Made by a program: the position numbers and the translations under genes
Part shown: positions 1-47,909 of the stretch, piece by piece
Position numbering within the stretch: the first letter of the stretch is position 1
How the letters are laid out: each line of letters begins with the position of its first letter
The notes under the pieces: model-generated
Database searches by the model: none
What the model saw: the letters and a program-made list of their open reading frames with translations, nothing else
Told to the model about the DNA's origin: nothing
IMG/VR virus record: IMGVR_UViG_2718218171_000003
Span: 1 to 47,909 of that record
DNA length: 47,909 nt
Reading direction: 5' to 3' (one strand)
Origin: a virus
Taxonomy: Duplodnaviria > Heunggongvirae > Uroviricota > Caudoviricetes

Positions 1-405
1 ATGGATCAGGTTGTTGTTTTTCAAAAGATGTTTGAGCAAGTGAGAAAAGAGCAAAACTTCTCCTGGTTTTATTCAGAATTAAAACATCACCGCATTGCAC
101 ATTACATTTATTATCTGGCTACGGATAATATCAGAATTATTACTCACGATGACACGGTTTTGTTATTAAGAGGAACCAGGAACCTGTTAAAAGTTAGTAC
201 GACCAAGAACCCTGCTAAAATAAAAGAGGCCGCATTGCTTCATATTTGCGGAAAATCAACATTTCGGGAATACTGTTCAACACTGGCAGGCGCGGGCGTT
301 TTCCGGTGGGTTACTGATGTTAATCATAACAAACGCAGTTACTACGCCATTGATAATACGCTTTTATATATTGAAGATGTAGAAAACAATAAACCATTAA
401 TCTAG
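1..405 (+). CDS. ycgX: YcgX-like (DUF1398-type) host protein
   Basis: Complete 134-aa ORF starting at window base 1; length and position next to iraM and the icd-site prophage junction match the E. coli ycgX locus as I recall it; not searched. Confidence 0.55.
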   Translation: MDQVVVFQKMFEQVRKEQNFSWFYSELKHHRIAHYIYYLATDNIRIITHDDTVLLLRGTRNLLKVSTTKNPAKIKEAALLHICGKSTFREYCSTLAGAGVFRWVTDVNHNKRSYYAIDNTLLYIEDVENNKPLI

Positions 406-611
406 CTAAAGTTGGAAGCTTAAGAAATGCTTCATAATTCAGTAAGACATTAGCATAATGGAAATAAAAGTGCAGAGACTATCCCTATGGATGATAAATA
501 CTGTCTTTTTATTGCCACTCATAAATAATCACCAGGCCAATACTATCAAATTGATATTTGAAATGTGATTACTTGACTTTCTATACGTTATTTTATAACG
601 GTTAGCAAATT

Positions 612-660
612 TATAAAACCAACGGGCGTGCCATACGCCCGTTTCAATACTTAACGCACA
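612..660. repeat. Second copy of the icd-terminator hairpin plus about 20 bp of flank
   Basis: About 50 bp nearly identical to 1480-1525; stem AACGGGCG / CGCCCGTT; on the minus strand followed by GGTTTTATAAATTTG. Confidence 0.6.
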
Positions 661-1107
661 TGTGTTTTGGTTTAGTCATCATCCGGTTATATGTATTTTA
701 GCCAGGAATGGGTTAAACCATTCCTATATAACTAAAAAATTGAAACCTTATTCTCATGTCATGCTTATATTCGTCATTATCGTTATATAAAAAGGCCAAC
801 CATAATGTTTAGCAAATTGGCACAAAGTAGTATAAAGGCTATGTTTTAATTACAGGATGTTCAGTCATTTGAATGTATAACATTTTAGCTAAACAAATCT
901 AAAACGAAGTGAATAATCTAATATTTTCACTAAATCTCATTTTGTTTGATATCTATTGAGATTTCTTGCTTTAAATTTTGTTTTATATAAACAATGGTTT
1001 TAATTTTTGATTAATTTGTTTTTTGGGGAGTAATATACACATATGCAAAGTCAAGAAATAAACATCCTAATGAACCATATTAAATACCGTGGGATAAGAC
1101 ATAACAA

Positions 1108-1431
1108 ATGAAGTGGATAGTAATTGACACGGTAATTCAACCTACATGCGGTATATCTTTTTCAGCCATATGGGGTGATATGAAAATGATCATCTGGTAT
1201 CAACCTACTATATTTCTCACTCCTGGAAGTATATTTACACCGGTTAAGTCTGGTATTATCTTTAAGGATAAAGAATACCCTATTACTATTTATAACATCA
1301 CACCATTCAACAAGGATTTATGGAGTTTACTCAAAAGCAGTCAAGAGTGTCCTCCAGGAGAAAGCGAAATAACAAATAAATGTTTACATAATAGTTGTAT
1401 TATAAAAATATGCCCATATGGACTCAAGTAA
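1108..1431 (+). CDS. iraM: Anti-adaptor protein IraM (RssB inhibitor)
   Basis: 107-aa [26 protein letters not shown]...CPYGLK matching the recalled IraM/YcgW sequence and length; lies next to the e14-type attachment locus as in K-12. Confidence 0.7.
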
Positions 1432-1479
1432 TGGTCTTCATATAAATATTCTCGACATGATATTAATAATATCCACATA

Positions 1480-1512
1480 AATAAAACAACGGGCGTGTTA
1501 TACGCCCGTTTC
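1480..1512 (-). terminator. Rho-independent terminator of the displaced icd 3' end (also downstream of iraM on the plus strand)
   Basis: Minus strand: AACGGGCGTATAACACGCCCGTT hairpin followed by GTTTTATTT, starting about 25 nt after the icd stop codon. Confidence 0.6.
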
Positions 1513-1533
1513 AATATTTAACACATGTAGAGA

Positions 1534-1693
1534 TTACATGTTCTTGATGATCGCATCACCAAACTCGCTACATTTCAGCAATTTAGCGCCTTCCATCAGA
1601 CGTTCGAAGTCATAGGTTACGGTCTTGGCGTTGATTGCGCCTTCCATACCTTTAACAATCAGGTCTGCGGCTTCAGTCCAGCCCATATGGCGT
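1534..1693 (-). pseudogene. icdC: Displaced 3'-terminal fragment of isocitrate dehydrogenase gene (icdC-like)
   Basis: Minus-strand translation reads [52 protein letters not shown]-stop, the Icd C-terminus; no icd coding sequence upstream; AT-rich DNA begins at about 1694. Confidence 0.85.
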
Positions 1694-2197
1694 AACAGTA
1701 TATAAAAACAATAAGTTCAAGTCATTGATATTTAATGATAAAAATTATTTTATTGTCTTTTTATTAGCCAAAATCAACTTTATTCAACCGTTTGATTTCA
1801 TTGACGTTCGTTTTTATTTTGGGGAAAGGTTTTATCTACCATTTATATCAAAATTACAAGTCTACATTTTATTAACATCTCAATACATGTGAGGCCTTGC
1901 AGACCTTTGTGAGACCTTATGTGTCTCAGTTTTGTCCCATCTTTTATTACGACTTGCATAGCCAATGAAGATAAACGTGACGACAAACGGCGCAGCAATC
2001 TTCCTTTCTTTCACACTTTCCCAACCCAGCATGTATACTTTTCTGCCATAACTAAAGTGAATGCCTGTTATGAGCAACAAACAGGCATTAGCGCCGCTAG
2101 CATATTAGCTACCATTCGACTGCCATACTTAAGATTGATTTCTTAAGTATAACCCGGTTTCTAATACTACTTATATATTCAGCTCTGAGATTCATTT

Positions 2198-5100
2198 TTA
2201 TCTCGTAAAGCTAGTTTTATGACTTCCTGTTAGCTGACTGTCTTCATAATAAAATGCTCCACTAAACTCCTGTCGACCATAATGATGACTTGATGTGAGT
2301 GAGCCCCCTATAACGCCCTTTTCACCTAATAATGTCCAAACGATTTCAAAACCATTGTCCCTTAACATTGTTAAAAATGGTTCTTTTTTAACAAGTAGAT
2401 GCGGCTTTGAAGCATATACAGCTTCAGCTGCAAAGCAAACCATAGTTCCATTTTCATCATTGAAGCTACCCTCTACTTCCCCACTTTTTAATCCCATCTT
2501 TTCAAAGATTAAGTTACTAGGCTTCAAAAAATTCAAAGTTTCTATTTTTGATTTGTCGAACTCCTCTTCCCACAAATAATTAATCGAAGTGACACTAACA
2601 TCAGCAATCTTAGCTCCAGACTCCCGGTCTGTTACCGAAGTCCAGTCAGATCCACCATAATAATCTGATTTAAAAGACTTAAATGCTTCGGACCAATAGT
2701 ACTCCCTATTAAATAATTGGTATCTATCAGTACATTCCGGCATCCACCTGCCCATAAAGTCTTGAGCTATTGCCCAATATCTAAAATTTTCAAATTCTTC
2801 AACTTTAACGATATAACTTCTGATCTGATACCAAACCTCTTTTCGTGGGTGCCCCCAATCATCGTTTCCAATAATTTTTGGTTCTTTCCATGATGGATAA
2901 CTTTCTAATACTATCCATTCATCACCATTATCATCTTTAACTTCAATAAAAGCATATGAATTAGTTATAGTAGTAGAACTTTTAACCCAGTCTTCATTAG
3001 AGCAAGTCCAATCAAACACTTCATCATTAAGCCACCACATTTCTTTATTGCTTATTTTTTTCGTTCCAGTTTCTTTAAGTAAGATAGTGGGATCTATATC
3101 TCTTACGTAAGGCTCCCATGGCCCTTGGTATGGATTTTCCTTTCGTTCGTCACCATAACCTTCAAAACGAGTAAAATTATCGGCTAGCCTTGCCATGTAT
3201 TCATAATAAGCAATCCATTGGTATTTTTTACCAATCCGTTCTTGGAATGCCTCTCTACGTCCACGTCCAGTTCCTATTTGTTGGTCAAAATTACCATGCT
3301 TCTCCGGATCCCAACCAAGCTCTATAACACGATTGAATATAAATTGTTGAGCTAGTCGAAGATCAAAGTGTTTATCAGTTTCCAGCAGATTATTATTATG
3401 ATCCAGGTATGGCTCTATTTCATTTTCAAACTCACTTAACAGATCGTATGACAATGAATTCTTAAATAATTTCTTGCTCGCCTTTATTTCTTCCTGTGCT
3501 TTTCTACCGACCACACGACCAAATTTAATTCCTTCGCATTTATCATCATAAATGAAAGGATCTGTGGCATCATACAAATCTTTTTGTTGATCAGTTAGTT
3601 TACATTTGAAAGTTTTAAAAACTTGCTTACGGTCAACAGGGGTTTCATTAAACTTGCAACCAGACCAATCAGAATGATTATAATTTGTACCAATAGTATA
3701 TCGTGAAAAGTCACCACCTTCCATAATCGAGCTCCAGAGTTCCCGATAAGGTTCTTTATCATAAAGGGACTCTAGTTCCTCTTTTGAAGGAATCTTGTCA
3801 GGCCAAATGCTGTTGTAGGGTGGTCTAGTCTTGGATAATTCAATGCTTTCAAGTTCCAATCCAAGATGATTAGCAAATTCAATAATCTCTCTAGCATAAT
3901 CTCTAAGTAATATATTTGGATACACATACTCAGAACAAAATACCTTTTGGTAAACAGTTTCGGCTAAATATTTTAGTTCTTTAATATTATCAGTTCGCAA
4001 TGTACAGCCTAATGCAACTGCAAATATTCTTTCCCAAACGTAAGGATCATTTACACCATAAAACTTATCAATTATTTTTCTCAATACAGGAATTCTTGGC
4101 TCGAGTAAACTCACTAAAGCCTTGGTTGAGCAATCTCGAAGTTCTCGGTTACTAGAAGTTAAAAACCAGCATAAACTAGTTGCAACTAGCTCGATTGACT
4201 CATCCGAAACAAAGCTTTTATCTGTTCTGGCCCATGCCCAATCGATTAGATGCCTAAAAGCTGAGTCTTCACTATATTTATATTTAAGTTCTGTAGTCCA
4301 AAACGAATCTCGATTTGCCAAAGAATAATCTTTTAGCCAATCATGCAAGAAATTAGCATTAAAGGGATGGTCAACTAAACCTGAAATAGAGATCACTGCC
4401 TCGAGGAAATGATCAAAACTATCTTTAAATTTAAAAACATGTTCATTGATGAAAGGTCTAATTTTTTCGAAATCAATAGCCTTAATATCTCGCCATATCA
4501 AGCTATCAATAAAGGCTTCTAGTAATTTAAGATTATTGCTAAACTCCGGCAGAAATTCATAAAGCTCTTTTTCATACCTTTCTGGCAATTGAATAGACAG
4601 CGCCTCTACTATTCCCGATTTTATATAAAAATCACATTCATCATGAAAATATTTTTTCAGACGACCATCAGGCTTAAATTCACTTTCGATATTTTCAACA
4701 TCATTTAATAAAAAATTAACAGTTAAATGATCATCAAACCTTTCAAAAGCCACATAAACTACTTCCTCAGTAGAATTATCATCATTTCTCACTATGCCTT
4801 TAGTCAATAATCCTTCGTCAATCAAGGCGCTGAGGAAGGTTTTATCAGCAACATAATCATTAACTACAGATTGAACCACTGAGTGAGCATCTTTAAGTGA
4901 AATACTATTACGACCAATCTCTAATTTGAATTTTATGATTTCATTGAGAGCATCTTTAACAAGAGGAAAACTGGGATCGAATGCATATTTTCTTGGCGAT
5001 GCTAATGATTTATTTACCCCTTCCACTAAAAAGTTAAAAATATTTGAAATCCCATTAAATCCAACAGGCACTTTGGTTAAACCATTTTTCTTAATGCCTT

Positions 5101-6652
5101 CACACAATAACTTAAGAAATAGAGGGTTTTTAAACTCTGGATTAAGGTTAGGTGATGAAGGCCTCTCTATATTGTAATAATCATAAAATAGACTAACCGC
5201 TTCCAACTCAACGCTCTGAAATCCAATATGTTCATGAATTTCAAAATTATTTCGCTCAACATTCTCATGTGAAATTGTTACATTTCTATATGTTGTTCTG
5301 ACTGACATTATCAGACCAAGCCATTCAAAGCCTCTGATTTCATCGACAAAACTGTTAATATTGTCATTCCAGAATTTATTTCCATTACCTTCATTAATAG
5401 CATCAATAAAAACTAAGACTCTTTTTCCTGTTTTTTTGCCATATAAATTCAGTTTTTCTAGGAATTCACGAGAAGTGATTTTAAGCTGTAATCTCTTGAA
5501 GATTTGTGACCATGGAGATTCATCTGAAGTAAGTTGTTGCCCTAGTATGAGTAGAGAAGGATACCCAGAAGCAATTCGATTTTTAATCACATCAGCCAGT
5601 AAATGAGACTTACCAATTCCAGCTTTTCCTTCGAGAAGTAAGAATGGGTTGTTAGCCAACTTCACTGTTGTTGAATTAATGAATGTACGTAATTCATTGC
5701 ACGCATAGTCAAGTTCCCGAAGCATTCGCAGAGTAGATGAATACTTATCACTGTAATGCTTGGTTTCACCTACTTGTTCTGATTTTTCTCGGAGTTCCCA
5801 CAATATTGATTCCGCTCCGCCAATAGCTGTCTGGCAACTAGAAACATAGTTATTAAATTTATTTATAGGGATTTCATCTAATTTAGAAAAATTAATTTCT
5901 TGATATATATCAGAAATTTCTTTTAAGGACTGGTCTATTTCAGATAATTGTGAGGAAATTACATCGCAACTATGTAATTTCTTTCCAGTGACCAGAAAAC
6001 TATCTATATGCGAATAAAATATTTTAGAAAAATTATTAGTTCTACCGAGACCATCAAATATCTCTGCTATTTCTAGCTTTACGTTGAGTTCGGGTGTGTA
6101 TCGGCCTCCCAAGTCAGCTATTGCTTGACTACTTTTCTCATTTAACCAATCATCACTCAAGTGAAAAGTTAGTTTCTCATCTATAGACCGCAAAACAAGT
6201 TTAATTTGAATAAGCTCTTCATTAATATCGAATATTTTTTCTTTATAAGTTTCTTCGATATGTAGCTTTTTTAACTTCGAACAATTATTTATTTTTAACG
6301 ACAACATCCCATAAAAAAGGCTGAGTTGTTGTTGAGTTGGGGGAGTGACGCTTGGATATTCTTTGAACTTGTCTAATAACATCTCTTTGTCAGGGAACTC
6401 TTTAAAAAGGATGTGCTCATTCAACATCTCAAACAATGGTTTAGAATGATAAAATGGAATTGCTCCACTTTCTACTGGATATGTTTCTTCAAACTCAATT
6501 GCCGTCTCTTCAATTAGTTGATATAATCTATCCACATATTTTTCTGTGGGGAATAATGCTTTCTTAATCCAACTATATCCTTCTTGAGAAATGAATTGAT
6601 CAATAAGTTTAGTTGCTACATAAGTTGCCACTGTAATTGATATGGGTTCCAT
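2198..6652 (-). CDS. NACHT/STAND-type P-loop NTPase (NLR-like), 1484 aa; candidate antiphage defence protein
   Basis: Uninterrupted 4455-nt ORF; Walker A GKAGIGKS (aa 342-349, codons 5606-5629), Walker B-like VLVFIDAINE (aa 412-421), sensor-1-like LIMSVRTT (aa 447-454), NPLFLKLL helix; N-terminal about 330 aa and C-terminal about 900 aa without assignable motifs; strongly AT-rich unlike neighbouring phage genes; RBS GGAAGA 8 nt upstream of ATG. Confidence 0.7.
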   Translation of the reverse strand: MEPISITVATYVATKLIDQFISQEGYSWIKKALFPTEKYVDRLYQLIEETAIEFEETYPVESGAIPFYHSKPLFEMLNEHILFKEFPDKEMLLDKFKEYPSVTPPTQQQLSLFYGMLSLKINNCSKLKKLHIEETYKEKIFDINEELIQIKLVLRSIDEKLTFHLSDDWLNEKSSQAIADLGGRYTPELNVKLEIAEIFDGLGRTNNFSKIFYSHIDSFLVTGKKLHSCDVISSQLSEIDQSLKEISDIYQEINFSKLDEIPINKFNNYVSSCQTAIGGAESILWELREKSEQVGETKHYSDKYSSTLRMLRELDYACNELRTFINSTTVKLANNPFLLLEGKAGIGKSHLLADVIKNRIASGYPSLLILGQQLTSDESPWSQIFKRLQLKITSREFLEKLNLYGKKTGKRVLVFIDAINEGNGNKFWNDNINSFVDEIRGFEWLGLIMSVRTTYRNVTISHENVERNNFEIHEHIGFQSVELEAVSLFYDYYNIERPSSPNLNPEFKNPLFLKLLCEGIKKNGLTKVPVGFNGISNIFNFLVEGVNKSLASPRKYAFDPSFPLVKDALNEIIKFKLEIGRNSISLKDAHSVVQSVVNDYVADKTFLSALIDEGLLTKGIVRNDDNSTEEVVYVAFERFDDHLTVNFLLNDVENIESEFKPDGRLKKYFHDECDFYIKSGIVEALSIQLPERYEKELYEFLPEFSNNLKLLEAFIDSLIWRDIKAIDFEKIRPFINEHVFKFKDSFDHFLEAVISISGLVDHPFNANFLHDWLKDYSLANRDSFWTTELKYKYSEDSAFRHLIDWAWARTDKSFVSDESIELVATSLCWFLTSSNRELRDCSTKALVSLLEPRIPVLRKIIDKFYGVNDPYVWERIFAVALGCTLRTDNIKELKYLAETVYQKVFCSEYVYPNILLRDYAREIIEFANHLGLELESIELSKTRPPYNSIWPDKIPSKEELESLYDKEPYRELWSSIMEGGDFSRYTIGTNYNHSDWSGCKFNETPVDRKQVFKTFKCKLTDQQKDLYDATDPFIYDDKCEGIKFGRVVGRKAQEEIKASKKLFKNSLSYDLLSEFENEIEPYLDHNNNLLETDKHFDLRLAQQFIFNRVIELGWDPEKHGNFDQQIGTGRGRREAFQERIGKKYQWIAYYEYMARLADNFTRFEGYGDERKENPYQGPWEPYVRDIDPTILLKETGTKKISNKEMWWLNDEVFDWTCSNEDWVKSSTTITNSYAFIEVKDDNGDEWIVLESYPSWKEPKIIGNDDWGHPRKEVWYQIRSYIVKVEEFENFRYWAIAQDFMGRWMPECTDRYQLFNREYYWSEAFKSFKSDYYGGSDWTSVTDRESGAKIADVSVTSINYLWEEEFDKSKIETLNFLKPSNLIFEKMGLKSGEVEGSFNDENGTMVCFAAEAVYASKPHLLVKKEPFLTMLRDNGFEIVWTLLGEKGVIGGSLTSSHHYGRQEFSGAFYYEDSQLTGSHKTSFTR

Positions 6653-11951: not shown

Positions 11952-14900
11952 TCAGCTGATACTGATGCCTGCGGTGGCTTTCTTCATCACCACAACCAGC
12001 AAATCGCTGATACTTGCTGTGGGATACCAGTCATTTACCAGCCATGCTGACACCGAAAACTCCAGCGTCATGTGACCGTGACCGGCAGGCATATCAATAA
12101 CGCCACTGTAAATCAGCGTATTATCCAGCGCGGTACGGTTATAAATTTCAGCACCGTTTTTCCGCACTATCAGACGGCATGAGGAGTAAATATCAGTATG
12201 CTCTCTCTCATGTTTAGCGCCGCTGAATGCCACCGCCGGAATAACAATCTGCCGGTCAAACGGCTGATCGTCATAAATCCTGACGGTAATGGTCCCTGAT
12301 GGCCACCGTTCCGGTGCACGGGAGTCCCGGGGGAAAGCTTTGCCCACTGTTTTAACGAGATCGCCTTCAATCTGGTTCGCGGACAGTTTTCCCAGAACCC
12401 GGCAGTTCTCGTTAATCGTGACGTTGTTGAGCGTCCCGGAGTTCGCATTCACGTTACCGCTGATATCGGCATTTTTCGCCGTCAGCCGCCCGTCCGGTGT
12501 CAGGGAAAATGCCGGAGGATTACCGCCGCTGGTAATGGTGGGAGCCGTCAGATATTTCAGGAACACTTCGTTCATGAATATCTGATCGCCCTGCCCAACA
12601 AACATCGGCTTTGTGTTGCCATTCGCAGGATTAATCATCGCAATCCTGTCTGCCGCCAGCAGCACCTGACTCTGCATGCCGTCAGGGGTGTTTTCAATAC
12701 CGGCACCAATACCCGCGATATAAAGGCGTCCGTCCTGCATCTGCTGCAGCTTCACAGCCCACATGCTGTTCAGGTTATTATTTGTATCAACCTGAACCTT
12801 CTGTATCTGCTGGATCGCTGCACTCTGGTCTTCCAGTTTCTTATTGACGGTCTGCGTGATTTCATTACTGACATCCGTGATGGACGTTCTGATTTCCGCC
12901 AGGTCAGGCGCAAGCTGACCGTTATCAATCTGCGTCCACAACTCCTGAGCCAGATGGGTTTTCCCTATCTCTCCTTTGAAAAAATCCAGATAGCCGGATG
13001 CATCATCACTCGGCTGGCCAACAGCCTCCACGAATGCCGATTTGCCAACGGTGTTCACACTGCGGATGTAAAAATAATAATCATGGCCCGGCTTGATATT
13101 GATACTGGCAGCTATCCAGTACAGCGCCGTGCCAAGATAGCGGGCTGTGGTTTCAACCTGCCTGATATCCGCAATCCGCTTTTCCGAGAACCAGAACTCA
13201 AACTGTACCGTCGGATCATAAACGGCAAGATACGGCGTGGCGGTTATCTGAAAATAGCCCGGCGTCAGCTCAATCCGCGACGGCGCTGCCGGTGCGGCAA
13301 TCCGGAACGATACCGATGCCGGATCGCCCTGCTGCCCCCAGGCATTTGCCGCCCGGACTGTCAGCCTGTAGTTTCCCAGCGCCAGTTGCGTGAAGCGGTA
13401 TGTGGTTTCCGTCGTCCTGGCCGTGCTGACCAGCCGCTCACTGCCGTCATCCGCTGCCACGGTCAGACGAAGCATAAAGCTCACGCCCTTCACCACCTTC
13501 GGCGTGTCCCATCGCGCCAGCACCTGATATTCCCCGCTGTCTGCGGTGACTTCGGCGGTCAGGTGCTGCACCGCTGGCGGCGTGACACCATTCACCGTGC
13601 CGCTCTGGTCGCCGTCAAAGTGCGCCCCGTTATCCACGATGGCCTCTTTCTCCGGCACATGCTGCACGGCGGTGATGGCATACGTGCCGTCGTCGTTCTC
13701 ACGGATACTCACGCAGCGGAACAGTCGCTGGCGCAGCGTCGGCAGCTTCAGCCCCCATACGCTGTATTCAGCAACACCGCCAGGAACACGGCTCACTTTT
13801 ACCTTCACGCCGTCGGTGACGGACTGAACCTCCACGCTGACCGGATTCCCCTGTCCGTCAACCAGGCTTATCAGCGTGATGCCGGAGGATGGCAGCGTGA
13901 TTTCACGGTCGAGCGTCAGCGTCCGCGTCTGGCTGTTCACCGCCAGCACGCGCCCGCCGATGCTGATACCCGCATAGTCATCATCACAGATTTCAATGAC
14001 ATCGCCCGGTACATGGCGAAGCCCTTCGGCACCCACGCTGAAGTCCACGGTCTGCGTTTCCAGCAGCTCCGTTTTAATCAGCCACAGCCCGGCGCGGTGT
14101 GCCTGCCCCCGGCTGGTACAGCCAAAGGCATCCATCTTCGTGACGTTACGACCGTAACGGGCAATGGCCTGCGTATCTTCAACAAGCTCTGTCGCCGTCT
14201 CCCAGCCGTTATCCGGGTCAATCCAGTTCACCTCAACGGCATTATGGCGGTCCTTCAGGGCGCTGAAGCTGTAGCGGAACGGCGCGCCATCATCCGGCAT
14301 CACCACATTACTGCGGTTATAGGTCCACACCTTATCCGACGGTCGGTCCTGCACGAACGTCAGCGTCTGCCCGTTCCATACCGGCATACAGCGCATCGCC
14401 GAGCAGAAATCACTGAGCACATCCCACGCCTTGCGCTGTGTGGTCAGGTACGCATTACAGGTGATGCGCGGCTCCGTGCCACCAAAGCCATCCGGCACCG
14501 ACTGGTCGCAATACTGGCCGATGACATACAGCGCCCATTTGTCCACATCCACCGCACCAAGACGTTTCCCCATGCCGTAGCGCGGATGGGTCAGCATATC
14601 CCACAGACACCAGGCCATGTTGTTGCTGTATGCCGGTTTAAACGTTCCGTCCCAGATACCGCTGTATTGCCGCGTCTGCGGGTTATAGTTCGACGGCACC
14701 TGCAGAATACGCCCGCGCAGATGATAATTACGGCTCACCTGCTGGCTGCCGAACTGCTCCGAATCCACCTGTACGCCGACCAGTGCCGTGTTCGGGTAGC
14801 ACTGTTTCACATCGATGATTTCGGTGTATGACGACCAGAGCGTTTTGTTCTGCAGCTGGTCTGTGGTGCTGTCCGGCGTCATCCTGCGCATCCGGATATT

Positions 14901-46540: not shown

Positions 46541-46777
46541 ATGTCTCGACTAATCACTTTACAGGACTGGGCTAAAGAAGAATTTGGGGACTTAGCACCA
46601 AGTGAGCGAGTTCTGAAAAAATACGCGCAAGGGAAAATGATGGCCCCACCCGCTATAAAAGTTGGTCGCTACTGGATGATTGACCGAAATTCCCGTTTTG
46701 TAGGAACGCTTGCAGAACCGCAACTCCCAATAAACGCAAACCCAAAACTCCAACGGATAATCGCTGATGGCTGCTAG
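46541..46777 (+). CDS. xis: Excisionase (Xis)
   Basis: 78-aa ORF directly upstream of and overlapping int; LTLQDWAKEE...PPAIKVGRYWMIDRNSRF resembles the lambda Xis fold signature; GAGGAGG RBS. Confidence 0.75.
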   Translation: MSRLITLQDWAKEEFGDLAPSERVLKKYAQGKMMAPPAIKVGRYWMIDRNSRFVGTLAEPQLPINANPKLQRIIADGC

Positions 46778-47909
46778 ACCCCGATCTCACAAAATCTCTA
46801 TACCCAATTTATATTGCAAATTAGATAAGCGAACCGGAAAGGTATATTGGCAATACAAACATCCACTATCCGGTCGTTTTCATAGCTTAGGAACTGATGA
46901 GAATGAAGCAAAACAAGTTGCTACTGAAGCAAATACCATTATTGCTGAACAACGTACCCGACAAATATTAAGCGTCAATGAGCGTCTGGAAAGAATGAAA
47001 GGCAGGCGCTCAGACATTACGGTGACAGAATGGCTTGATAAATATATTTCTATCCAGGAGGACAGGCTGCAACATAATGAACTAAGACCCAACTCCTATC
47101 GGCAAAAAGGCAAACCCATTCGTCTTTTCCGTGAGCATTGTGGAATGCAACACCTCAAGGATATTACCGCACTTGATATTGCCGAAATAATTGATGCTGT
47201 AAAGGCTGAAGGTCATAACAGGATGGCGCAAGTCGTGAGAATGGTGTTAATCGACGTCTTCAAAGAAGCACAACACGCAGGACATGTTCCGCCAGGATTT
47301 AACCCAGCGCAGGCAACAAAACAACCGCGAAATCGAGTAAACCGCCAAAGATTATCACTGCCCGAATGGCAGGCAATATTTGACAGCGTAAGCAGACGGC
47401 AGCCCTATTTAAAATGCGGGATGCTACTTGCTCTTGTCACTGGACAACGTTTAGGCGATATCTGCAATTTGAAATTCTCTGATATCTGGGACGACATGTT
47501 GCACATTACTCAGGAAAAAACCGGTTCAAAACTTGCTATTCCGCTTAACCTGAAATGCGATGCTCTGAATATTACCCTTCGTGAAGTTATATCTCAGTGC
47601 AGGGATGCTGTTGTTAGTAAATATCTGGTCCATTACCGTCACACAACCTCTCAAGCAAACAGAGGAGACCAGGTTTCTGCGAATACTCTGACAACGGCTT
47701 TTAAAAAGGCCAGGGAAAAATGTGGCATAAAATGGGAGCAAGGAACTGCGCCCACATTTCATGAGCAGCGATCTCTGTCAGAACGGTTATATCGGGAACA
47801 GGGTCTGGATACGCAAAAGTTGTTAGGCCATAAATCCAGAAAAATGACCGACCGATACAATGATGATCGTGGTAAAGACTGGATTATCGTAGATATCAAA
47901 ACAGCATAG
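46767..47909 (+). CDS. int: Tyrosine integrase (lambda Int family)
   Basis: 380-aa ORF with C-terminal catalytic region ...HEQRSLSERLYREQ...LLGHKSRKMTDRYNDDRGKDW; stop codon is the last triplet of the window. Confidence 0.9.
   Translation: MAARPRSHKISIPNLYCKLDKRTGKVYWQYKHPLSGRFHSLGTDENEAKQVATEANTIIAEQRTRQILSVNERLERMKGRRSDITVTEWLDKYISIQEDRLQHNELRPNSYRQKGKPIRLFREHCGMQHLKDITALDIAEIIDAVKAEGHNRMAQVVRMVLIDVFKEAQHAGHVPPGFNPAQATKQPRNRVNRQRLSLPEWQAIFDSVSRRQPYLKCGMLLALVTGQRLGDICNLKFSDIWDDMLHITQEKTGSKLAIPLNLKCDALNITLREVISQCRDAVVSKYLVHYRHTTSQANRGDQVSANTLTTAFKKAREKCGIKWEQGTAPTFHEQRSLSERLYREQGLDTQKLLGHKSRKMTDRYNDDRGKDWIIVDIKTA

Follow-up and report, generated by a model that had tools for sequence, protein, structure and literature searches.

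Gene content and terminator repeat beside the icd prophage

The window referred to throughout is the whole stretch of DNA that was analyzed, the 47,909 nt of IMG/VR record IMGVR_UViG_2718218171_000003, in which ycgX, ymgL and iraM are located on the + strand and a 3′ fragment of icd on the – strand. The features of the region are as follows.

1–405, + strand: ycgX (DUF1398), an ORF matching Pfam PF07166 (E = 1e-47)
458–568, + strand: small ORF ymgL, from the annotation of genomes L001, L002 and L201 and from translation, located between ycgX and copy A as part of the ancestral flank
613–663, – strand: copy A, a predicted icd terminator module composed of the U-tract complement (613–620), a hairpin (621–643, loop GCC) and a spacer (644–663)
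664–1107, + strand: AT-rich upstream region of iraM (27% GC), part of an 867-bp indel and containing the annotated small ORF ymgK (805–849)
1108–1431, + strand: iraM, an anti-adaptor gene (NCBIfam NF007393)
1481–1528, – strand: copy B, the predicted intrinsic terminator of icd, with a hairpin at 1488–1510 (loop GTT) and the U-tract GUUUUAUUUA on the – strand
1534–1692, – strand: displaced icd 3′ end, an icdC-type pseudogene fragment (residues ~365–416) on the attR side of the current prophage
1693–47909, no strand assigned: lambdoid prophage in icd, from ORFs, integrase domains and attP-form contigs
2198–6652, – strand: Avs2, a cargo gene of the prophage
46767–47909, + strand: integrase of the resident prophage, from integrase domains

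The product of iraM matched NF007393 over its full length with 168.3 bits, against a curated cut-off of 121; PF11183 was among the precomputed Pfam tags, yet a direct Pfam scan gave no match at E ≤ 0.001. The ORF at 1534–1686 on the – strand, with the icd stop codon at 1534–1536, corresponds to residues 367–416 of the 416 residues of NADP-isocitrate dehydrogenase, in agreement with the first-pass annotation, which had assigned an icd 3′ fragment to 1534–1693. Homology to intact icd genes reaches 1692 and continues weakly as far as 1697. The ycgX gene was found in iraM-positive and iraM-less E. coli alike. It is phage-like as well: in a tblastn search against phages, it shared 44% identity with a DUF1398 ORF located at the right end of the genomes of lambda and its relatives. 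An Rfam scan of window positions 1–2500 yielded nothing near thresholds.

A repeat search matched positions 616–658 with 1483–1525 (43 nt, 88% identity, spacing of 867), and hand alignment with one 1-nt and one 2-nt indel paired 613–663 with 1481–1528, 45 of the 51 positions being identical. The duplicated icd terminator that had been reported near 612–660 and 1480–1512 is thus real, with coordinates right to within a few bases, and copies A (613–663) and B (1481–1528) do bracket iraM (1108–1431) as direct repeats. The repeat unit consists of ATAAAAC, which is the complement of the U-tract, a 23-nt hairpin, and a 20-nt spacer, the end of which is separated from the icd stop codon by 5 nt. The hairpins at 621–643 and 1488–1510 differ only in the loop, with GCC in copy A and GTT in copy B, and both have a stem of 9 bp, including 6 GC pairs, and a 5-nt loop. 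The folding energy of the intact hairpin is –14.2 kcal/mol, and the – strand tails are GUUUUAUUUA for copy B and GGUUUUAUAA for copy A.

A consensus scan scored both copies as intrinsic terminators on the – strand only, that is, in the direction of icd, and the folds agreed; both are predicted Rho-independent terminators of this direction. The tail of copy A on the + strand, UUUCAAUA, is a poor U-tract. The hairpin of copy B begins 23 nt past the icd stop codon. Like the bidirectional terminators found between convergent genes, copy B is a stable hairpin between iraM and icd, but its U-tract is good in the icd direction only; copy A differs from such terminators in that it lies in no convergent gene pair.

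The hairpin pattern was limited to copies A and B in the 47.9 kb of the window, with 0 matches expected in 100 shuffles. No third terminator copy was found elsewhere in the window, upstream of ycgX (in the left flanks of L001 and L002) or beside phage homologues of iraM. Per genome, the repeat matched a median of 2 places and at most 4, and every one was in an icd-related context. The repeat, with its 51 nt, 88% identity and lack of terminal inverted repeats, does not have the properties of a target-site duplication, a MITE or a REP-type element.

The iraM polymorphism and prophage occupancy at icd

A census of 5426 complete E. coli genomes was performed with a ycgX-A-iraM-B-icd query and with a separate query for the empty-site junction. 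The ycgX-A-iraM-B-icd arrangement was present in approximately 3836 genomes, and the junction query revealed an empty site with a single B-type terminator in approximately 1037 (~19%). The remaining ~550 genomes had other arrangements; a prophage remnant abuts the terminator in O157:H7, and one further genome has an IS1 truncation at the locus. In the iraM-less genomes H22–H27, the query spans 1033 bp, compared with 1900 bp in the window, and is exactly 867 bp shorter. In empty-site genomes, the ycgX-side flank is joined to one B-type hairpin, which is followed by icd. Copies A and B are the exact boundaries of the AT-rich 867-bp iraM segment (29% GC overall), and this segment is a presence/absence polymorphism.

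The empty-site genomes include the type strain ATCC 11775, Nissle 1917 and ExPEC XM, which we take to belong to phylogroup B2, as we do all empty-site strains of recognizable phylogroup. The other Escherichia and Citrobacter species examined have a single terminator and no iraM at the locus. The presence or absence of iraM among strains, including its absence from CFT073, and the paralogue IraL have been described previously (PMC4045071).

All four combinations of iraM and an icd prophage were found, as exemplified below.

iraM present, prophage at icd present: the window
iraM present, prophage at icd absent: L002, with an intact 1251-nt icd and rluE adjoining
iraM absent, prophage at icd absent: L001
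iraM absent, prophage at icd present: L003, with the same prophage end as the window

Because all four combinations exist, copy A cannot be regarded as a footprint of the present prophage, to which it is unrelated. The check proposed in the first-pass annotation, whether the upstream copy occurs in strains without an icd prophage, cuts both ways: the copy is present without a prophage in L002, and approximately 19% of E. coli genomes lack it.

Phage-borne terminators and constraint on copies A and B

Integrases with 99–100% identity to that of the window are encoded on contigs (L007, L054, L010) in which int is followed, after 68 nt, by the hairpin and the icd 3′ end. In L054 and L010, the icd 3′ end leads straight into DNA matching window positions 1694–1978, which is the layout of the attP form of the phage in the window. 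The attP-form contigs contain one terminator copy each, and they place the prophage's own terminator and icd 3′ copy just past the end of the window. The exact attR-side boundary had been put at about 1693; a junction there is supported, but base-level placement of the crossover is precluded by the segment 1481–1692, all of which is common to phage and host. In the closest genome, H1, the prophage differs in length from that of the window.

Phages 21, 4A7, ev207 and Perceval matched the ycgX–iraM intergenic query at 613–663 only, and the matching sequence in phage 21 is annotated as "terminator". The attP contigs and free phages carry a block composed of U-tract, hairpin, spacer and icd 3′ end, and its distal 51 nt correspond to the A/B unit. 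Phages that integrate in icd thus bring the terminator along with the last ~160 nt of icd. Each integration therefore leaves the prophage flanked by a terminator at either end, the two being direct repeats. In the present lysogen, copy B and icdC lie at attR, and the phage terminator and icd 3′ end at attL.

Remains of other icd prophages were found beside icd. Next to its terminator and full icd, Escherichia sp. MOD1-EC7003 has retained no more than the final 49 nt of int and one fragment of the Q region, and in E. albertii Q-region pieces and half of int are left. In MOD1-EC7003, E. albertii and O157:H7, an icd prophage has decayed to scraps while its terminator and icd 3′ end are in use, and these cases constitute independent precedents.

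A B-type hairpin, identical in stem and loop, adjoins full-length icd in Citrobacter amalonaticus, C. braakii and Citrobacter sp. Cu233, and likewise in E. albertii, E. whittamii and two further Escherichia species; the arrangement of the hairpin after a full-length icd was found in eight outgroup genomes. Neither iraM nor ycgX was detected near icd within the 8 kb fetched from these Citrobacter and Escherichia outgroups. Copy B is predicted to be the native icd terminator, deeply conserved from Citrobacter to Escherichia, and the working copy.

The A-specific junction served to retrieve 61 metagenome contigs in which the stems of the two copies were surveyed; 53 of these contigs reach copy B. 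The stem of copy A was intact in 14 of the 61 contigs and mutated in 47, whereas that of copy B was intact in 53 of 53. The commonest form of copy A (25 of 61) is the K-12 form AACGGCCGT...ACGTCCGTT; the form AACGGGTGT, found in 18, is that of Shigella, and four loci had other stem changes. Copy A thus occurred as five stem variants with at least four different mutations, compared with none in copy B, these counts referring to sequences rather than to independent events. Mutated copy A stems had folding energies between –7 and –10.7 kcal/mol on the terminator strand, compared with –14.2 kcal/mol for the intact stem, so that the stem is intact in this window and degenerate in most strains. We found no – strand gene for copy A to terminate: positions 664–1340 contain no – strand ORF of at least 40 amino acids and nothing icd-like. 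Because its stem has accumulated at least four different mutations and that of copy B none, copy A is under relaxed constraint, and we regard it as a retired, or fossil, icd terminator.

Three substitutions and three indel positions in copy A are fixed in all iraM-positive strains. The five differences fixed in copy A all lie outside the stem (chance probability of ~0.1 by our own estimate), and these stem-sparing changes hint at early constraint on copy A. In 162 genomes, an IS200/IS605-family element has inserted directly at the border of hairpin A. The odd left flank of one metagenome copy A was considered as a possible new context and was rejected, given that it is an insertion of this family.

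Origin of the A/B pair

Chromosomal iraM with at least 90% identity was found in E. coli and Shigella only, in line with PMC4045071. All diverged homologues examined (54–67% identity) were located in prophage-type DNA. Two phage records and four of five contigs looked up (P0004, P0009, P0019 and P0012) have the homologue in the moron slot of lambdoid prophages, flanked by antiterminator Q (or stx2AB) on one side and nanS-p/holin on the other and oriented antisense to the late genes; in the fifth contig (P0011), it is located beside an IS21-type element and PerC/GGDEF genes. Nucleotide homology between chromosomal and phage iraM is confined to the coding sequence. When 406–1107 and 1432–1487 were compared with phages by blastn, and with seven prophage loci by blastn and tblastx, the terminator alone matched. 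No integrase or other phage gene is left between copies A and B. The phage origin of chromosomal iraM therefore rests on the context of its homologues, given that the local noncoding sequence matches no phage, and we infer that the gene is cargo of the phage moron type.

The flank of the terminator in Citrobacter is homologous (81–85%) to approximately 50 nt on the left side of copy A and, likewise, of the single terminator in B2 genomes. To the left of copy B, only the U-tract is shared with other terminator copies, as is the case for phage-borne copies. These flanks fit copy A as the original terminator and copy B as a phage-delivered one, because the old downstream flank is contiguous with A and not with B. 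The argument is not strong by itself, because the 7 shared nucleotides (ATAAAAC) are functionally constrained: this common left boundary is the U-tract, for which function is a sufficient explanation, and it is no marker of a recombination boundary.

Among haplotypes of the ycgX flank, the eight from empty sites formed one clade and those from iraM-positive genomes two, the three clades being nearly equidistant (0.031–0.037) in an unrooted clustering. Given that empty-site haplotypes form one clade, the indel appears to reflect one old event rather than recurrent repeat-mediated loss or slippage. A search of the 5426 genomes for empty sites recombined between A and B (an A-type loop with a B-type right flank, as a chimera on the L001 haplotype) found none among ~1044 at ≥99%, a test that speaks for the L001 haplotype background. 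Because the outgroups lack iraM and B2 is usually given a basal position in E. coli, gain of iraM after the B2 split is favored over its loss in B2. We consider it less likely that A-iraM-B was ancestral and that the B2 lineage lost the segment through one deletion between the two copies.

The A/B duplication is probably the scar of an event involving an older icd-integrating lambdoid phage that subsequently decayed to iraM. Such a phage would have integrated with its own terminator and icd 3′ end, leaving terminators on both sides of the prophage. The outer terminator, attached to the ancestral downstream flank, would have become copy A, and the phage-delivered terminator would have become copy B and taken over icd termination. 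Deletions would have shrunk the prophage to one moron, iraM, together with its control region, the displaced icd 3′ fragment beside copy A would also have been lost, and copy A would have drifted afterwards. The B2-type empty site would represent the state before integration. Several results count against this reconstruction. Local alignment of the interval between copy A and iraM with the displaced icd 3′ fragment gave a score below the shuffle mean, no intermediate genome with phage genes still between A and B was found, and positions 664–1107 and 1432–1480 showed no likeness to phage records or to the flanks of phage iraM homologues.

Chance resemblance between generic GC-rich terminator hairpins is extremely improbable as the source of the A/B similarity. 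Similar 9-bp stems (AACGGGCGT / ACGCCCGTT) do occur in the unrelated genera Mangrovibacter, Cedecea and Serratia, but the match is not that of a generic hairpin: identity continues for 7 nt on the U-tract side and through the 20-nt spacer on the other, zero matches were expected in shuffles, and the repeat boundaries coincide exactly with the population indel, and these observations refute the explanation. A secondary att remnant or footprint of the window's prophage or its immediate relatives, as proposed in the first-pass annotation, would account for the location of copy A approximately 1 kb from attR and for its likeness to att-adjacent sequence. However, copy A is present in genomes with an intact icd and no prophage (L002 and 14 of 21 iraM-positive rows in a spread sample of the census), B2 genomes with the prophage end of the window (L003 and H22–H26) lack both copy A and iraM, and the attP form has one terminator copy only. 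The crossover core of icd phages lies inside icd, ~160 nt from the stop codon, and the homology of copy A ends 5 nt short of the stop position, so that copy A contains neither icd coding sequence nor the core; no integrase-like sequence is located between the copies. This origin is very unlikely and is refuted by the four-way distribution of iraM and prophage, and the proposed att remnant does not hold in the strict sense. Of the more general suggestion of a footprint of integration at icd, the present prophage is excluded, and we infer an older phage event instead. Copy A might also be a second terminator maintained by selection, shielding ycgX and ymgL from antisense transcription or read-through of the iraM/icd region or ending ycgX–ymgL transcripts. 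Its intact hairpin in this window (–14.2 kcal/mol), its U-rich – strand tail and the sparing of the stem by its five oldest changes would fit such a role, but 47 of 61 loci, with the K-12 and Shigella forms included, have a damaged copy A stem, while that of copy B is invariant, the + strand tail is a poor U-tract, and no – strand gene lies upstream; we therefore regard a selected function as improbable.

In a further alternative, copy B would be the original terminator and copy A would have arrived with the iraM segment, 867 bp having been inserted at or into the terminator either by recombination with foreign DNA bearing a diverged icd-type terminator or by a hairpin-targeted or illegitimate insertion that duplicated its target. 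The empty site and all outgroups are B-type at every diagnostic position, which makes copy A the odd one out, no icd remnant lies beside it, and its hairpin can attract insertions, as illustrated by the IS200/IS605-family element in 162 genomes. However, the A-type module, as defined by the loop GCC and TCAATACTTAACGCACATGT, was present in 0 of 50,697 phage records and in no other species among species representatives; three IMG/VR loci contained it, all in the ycgX–iraM context, and its junction was found in 61 metagenome loci, 61 of 61 in that same context. In addition, the ancestral downstream flank is contiguous with A rather than with B, the segment has no terminal inverted repeats and no transposase, and a diverged 51-nt duplication is unlike a target-site duplication. 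We consider arrival of copy A with the insert to be unlikely.

If the A/B pair is indeed the scar of an older icd phage, the icd terminator module may serve as a reusable landing strip, at which successive phages push the older terminator outward and decay to one useful cargo gene, with iraM having been domesticated in this manner into the PhoP-RpoS circuit of non-B2 E. coli. We put forward this broader model tentatively and with some doubt. If it were true, the series bluR, ycgX, T(A), iraM, T(B), icdC, Avs2...prophage, T, icd would be a stratigraphy of phage deposits, and retired terminators would be its layer markers.

In tandem accretion at the 3′ ends of tRNA and tmRNA genes, each element adds a direct repeat of the 3′ end of the gene. 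The logic at icd would be the same, with the element restoring the 3′ end and the displaced copy being pushed outward as a fossil, but here the target encodes a protein, and all that survives as a fossil is its terminator. Phage 21 attaches in icd, with mosaic icd 3′ ends. The attachment of e14 within icd is attributed to Hill et al. (1989), as cited in PMC13626634. The icd/icdC duplication of the e14 and phage 21 type, which the prophage ends of the window show in fresh form, resembles the A/B pair in that both are direct repeats of a distal icd unit, which in the A/B pair would likewise derive from a phage-borne copy. The A/B pair differs in comprising only the terminator and the 20-nt spacer, with no icd coding sequence; in having 816 nt, a single gene and no integrase between its copies; and in being present in most E. 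coli whatever the prophage occupancy, with one copy decaying. Chromosomal iraM resembles phage morons, among them the CFT073 gene iraL of the potB island (PMC4045071) and the homologues of iraM found between stx2 and nanS-p, in being a small, AT-rich, independently transcribed gene, but it lies outside any recognizable prophage.

In our literature search, no paper turned up that reports the duplicated terminator, the exact edges of the 867-bp segment or the degeneration of the outer terminator copy. Attachment at icd, the icd/icdC pair and the strain distribution of iraM are already known, and the A/B pair adds a modest new detail and no new mechanism. The present analysis fixes base-level boundaries for an iraM polymorphism that divides B2 (ExPEC-type) from most other E. 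coli and that alters RpoS stabilization under PhoPQ-inducing conditions. It also offers a concrete candidate route from a phage moron to a host regulator, and it suggests that a prophage-flanking repeat can outlast its prophage as a retired terminator, so that similar scars can be searched for at other protein-gene attachment sites.

The location of iraM has been given as "on the e14 prophage" (PMC4045071). The order in K-12 is ycgX-ymgL-ymgK-iraM-icdC-mcrA, with iraM just outside e14, beyond icdC, and the gene is also present in strains without an icd prophage; that statement is therefore corrected here, iraM being located outside e14.

An antiviral gene at the attR end of the prophage

The first prophage gene from the attR end directly adjoins the displaced icd fragment and encodes an antiviral protein:

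2198-6652, - strand: Avs2 (AVAST type 2), an antiviral STAND NTPase of 1484 amino acids, identified with a PADLOC score of 1762 bits

A Pfam search of the 1484-residue Avs2 protein yielded no match. The GC content of the gene is 34%, versus 52% in the remaining prophage, and Avs2 is therefore a defence cargo gene of the prophage.

Sequences around the icd terminators

In the analysis of copy A, the decaying copy of the icd terminator, we observed a mobile element that abuts its hairpin (hairpin A) at the left edge, with a few bases between the element and the stem:

Metagenome locus L159, 1-101, reverse orientation, and E. coli genome matches H148-H159 and H4: IS200/IS605-family element, at the equivalent of window position ~615

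This element is multicopy, occupying 7-36 places per genome. Given that its junction with hairpin A is present in 162 complete E. coli genomes, these data suggest hairpin-proximal targeting by the element. The hairpin of copy B, the working terminator, was flipped in two of the 53 metagenome loci (among L134-L194) that reach it, with AACGGGCGTATAACACGCCCGTT on the + strand and the flanks unchanged; either the palindrome has inverted in these two loci, or the flip could be an artefact of assembly.

Repeats were found within the 68 nucleotides that separate the integrase stop codon from the phage-borne terminator:

Contig L007, 5617-5683, also in L009, L013 and L054, just past the right end of the window: three direct repeats of GTTTTGGGGAA(G/A)

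They are candidate arm-type binding sites for the integrase. In flanks of the other type, which occurs in Citrobacter, in Shigella L072 and in L020, the equivalent place carries three TTTTGATAA repeats.

Two loci retain remnants of decayed prophages in icd:

L078 (Escherichia sp. MOD1-EC7003), 486-843: decayed icd-phage remnant
L080 (E. albertii NBRC 107761), 2242-4557: decayed icd-phage remnant

Both consist of a Q-region fragment and the 3' end of int from the same type of icd-integrating phage, highly decayed, and in both loci full-length icd now relies on the icd 3' end and terminator that the phage brought. In an E. coli-type locus from IMG/VR that lacks iraM and has a single terminator (L026), the spacer between terminator and icd is ACAGTTTTTAACGCATGCAGAAATTACAT, which is closer to the Citrobacter spacer than to that of E. 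coli. Such a spacer would fit a mosaic icd 3' region assembled from different species.

Homologues, classification and annotation of iraM

Stx2a phages, Stx2c phages and other lambdoid prophages carry homologues of iraM with 54-67% identity (L121, L122, L123-L131 and L195-L197). These lie antisense in a slot that has stx2B (or Q) on one side and nanS-p/holin on the other. Many phage records contain the homologue without annotating it. The presence of an RpoS-stabilising anti-adaptor adjoining stx2 may merit interest by itself.

Precomputed database tags assign the IraM homologues to Pfam PF11183 (PmrD family). An hmmscan of the window IraM (1108-1431) against Pfam-A gave no match at E<=0.001, and the same protein strongly matched NCBIfam NF007393.

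The genes for the iraM regulators, phoP and phoQ, are located ~6 kb from icd on its other side (L132, O157:H7, 12978-14128), with the gene order icd-rluE-nudJ-mnmA-hflD-purB-phoPQ. The DH5alpha assembly NZ_CP045741.1 (L201, 2298-2620) lists iraM as a pseudogene with a frameshift, which could stem from a sequencing error or be a true lesion of the laboratory strain.
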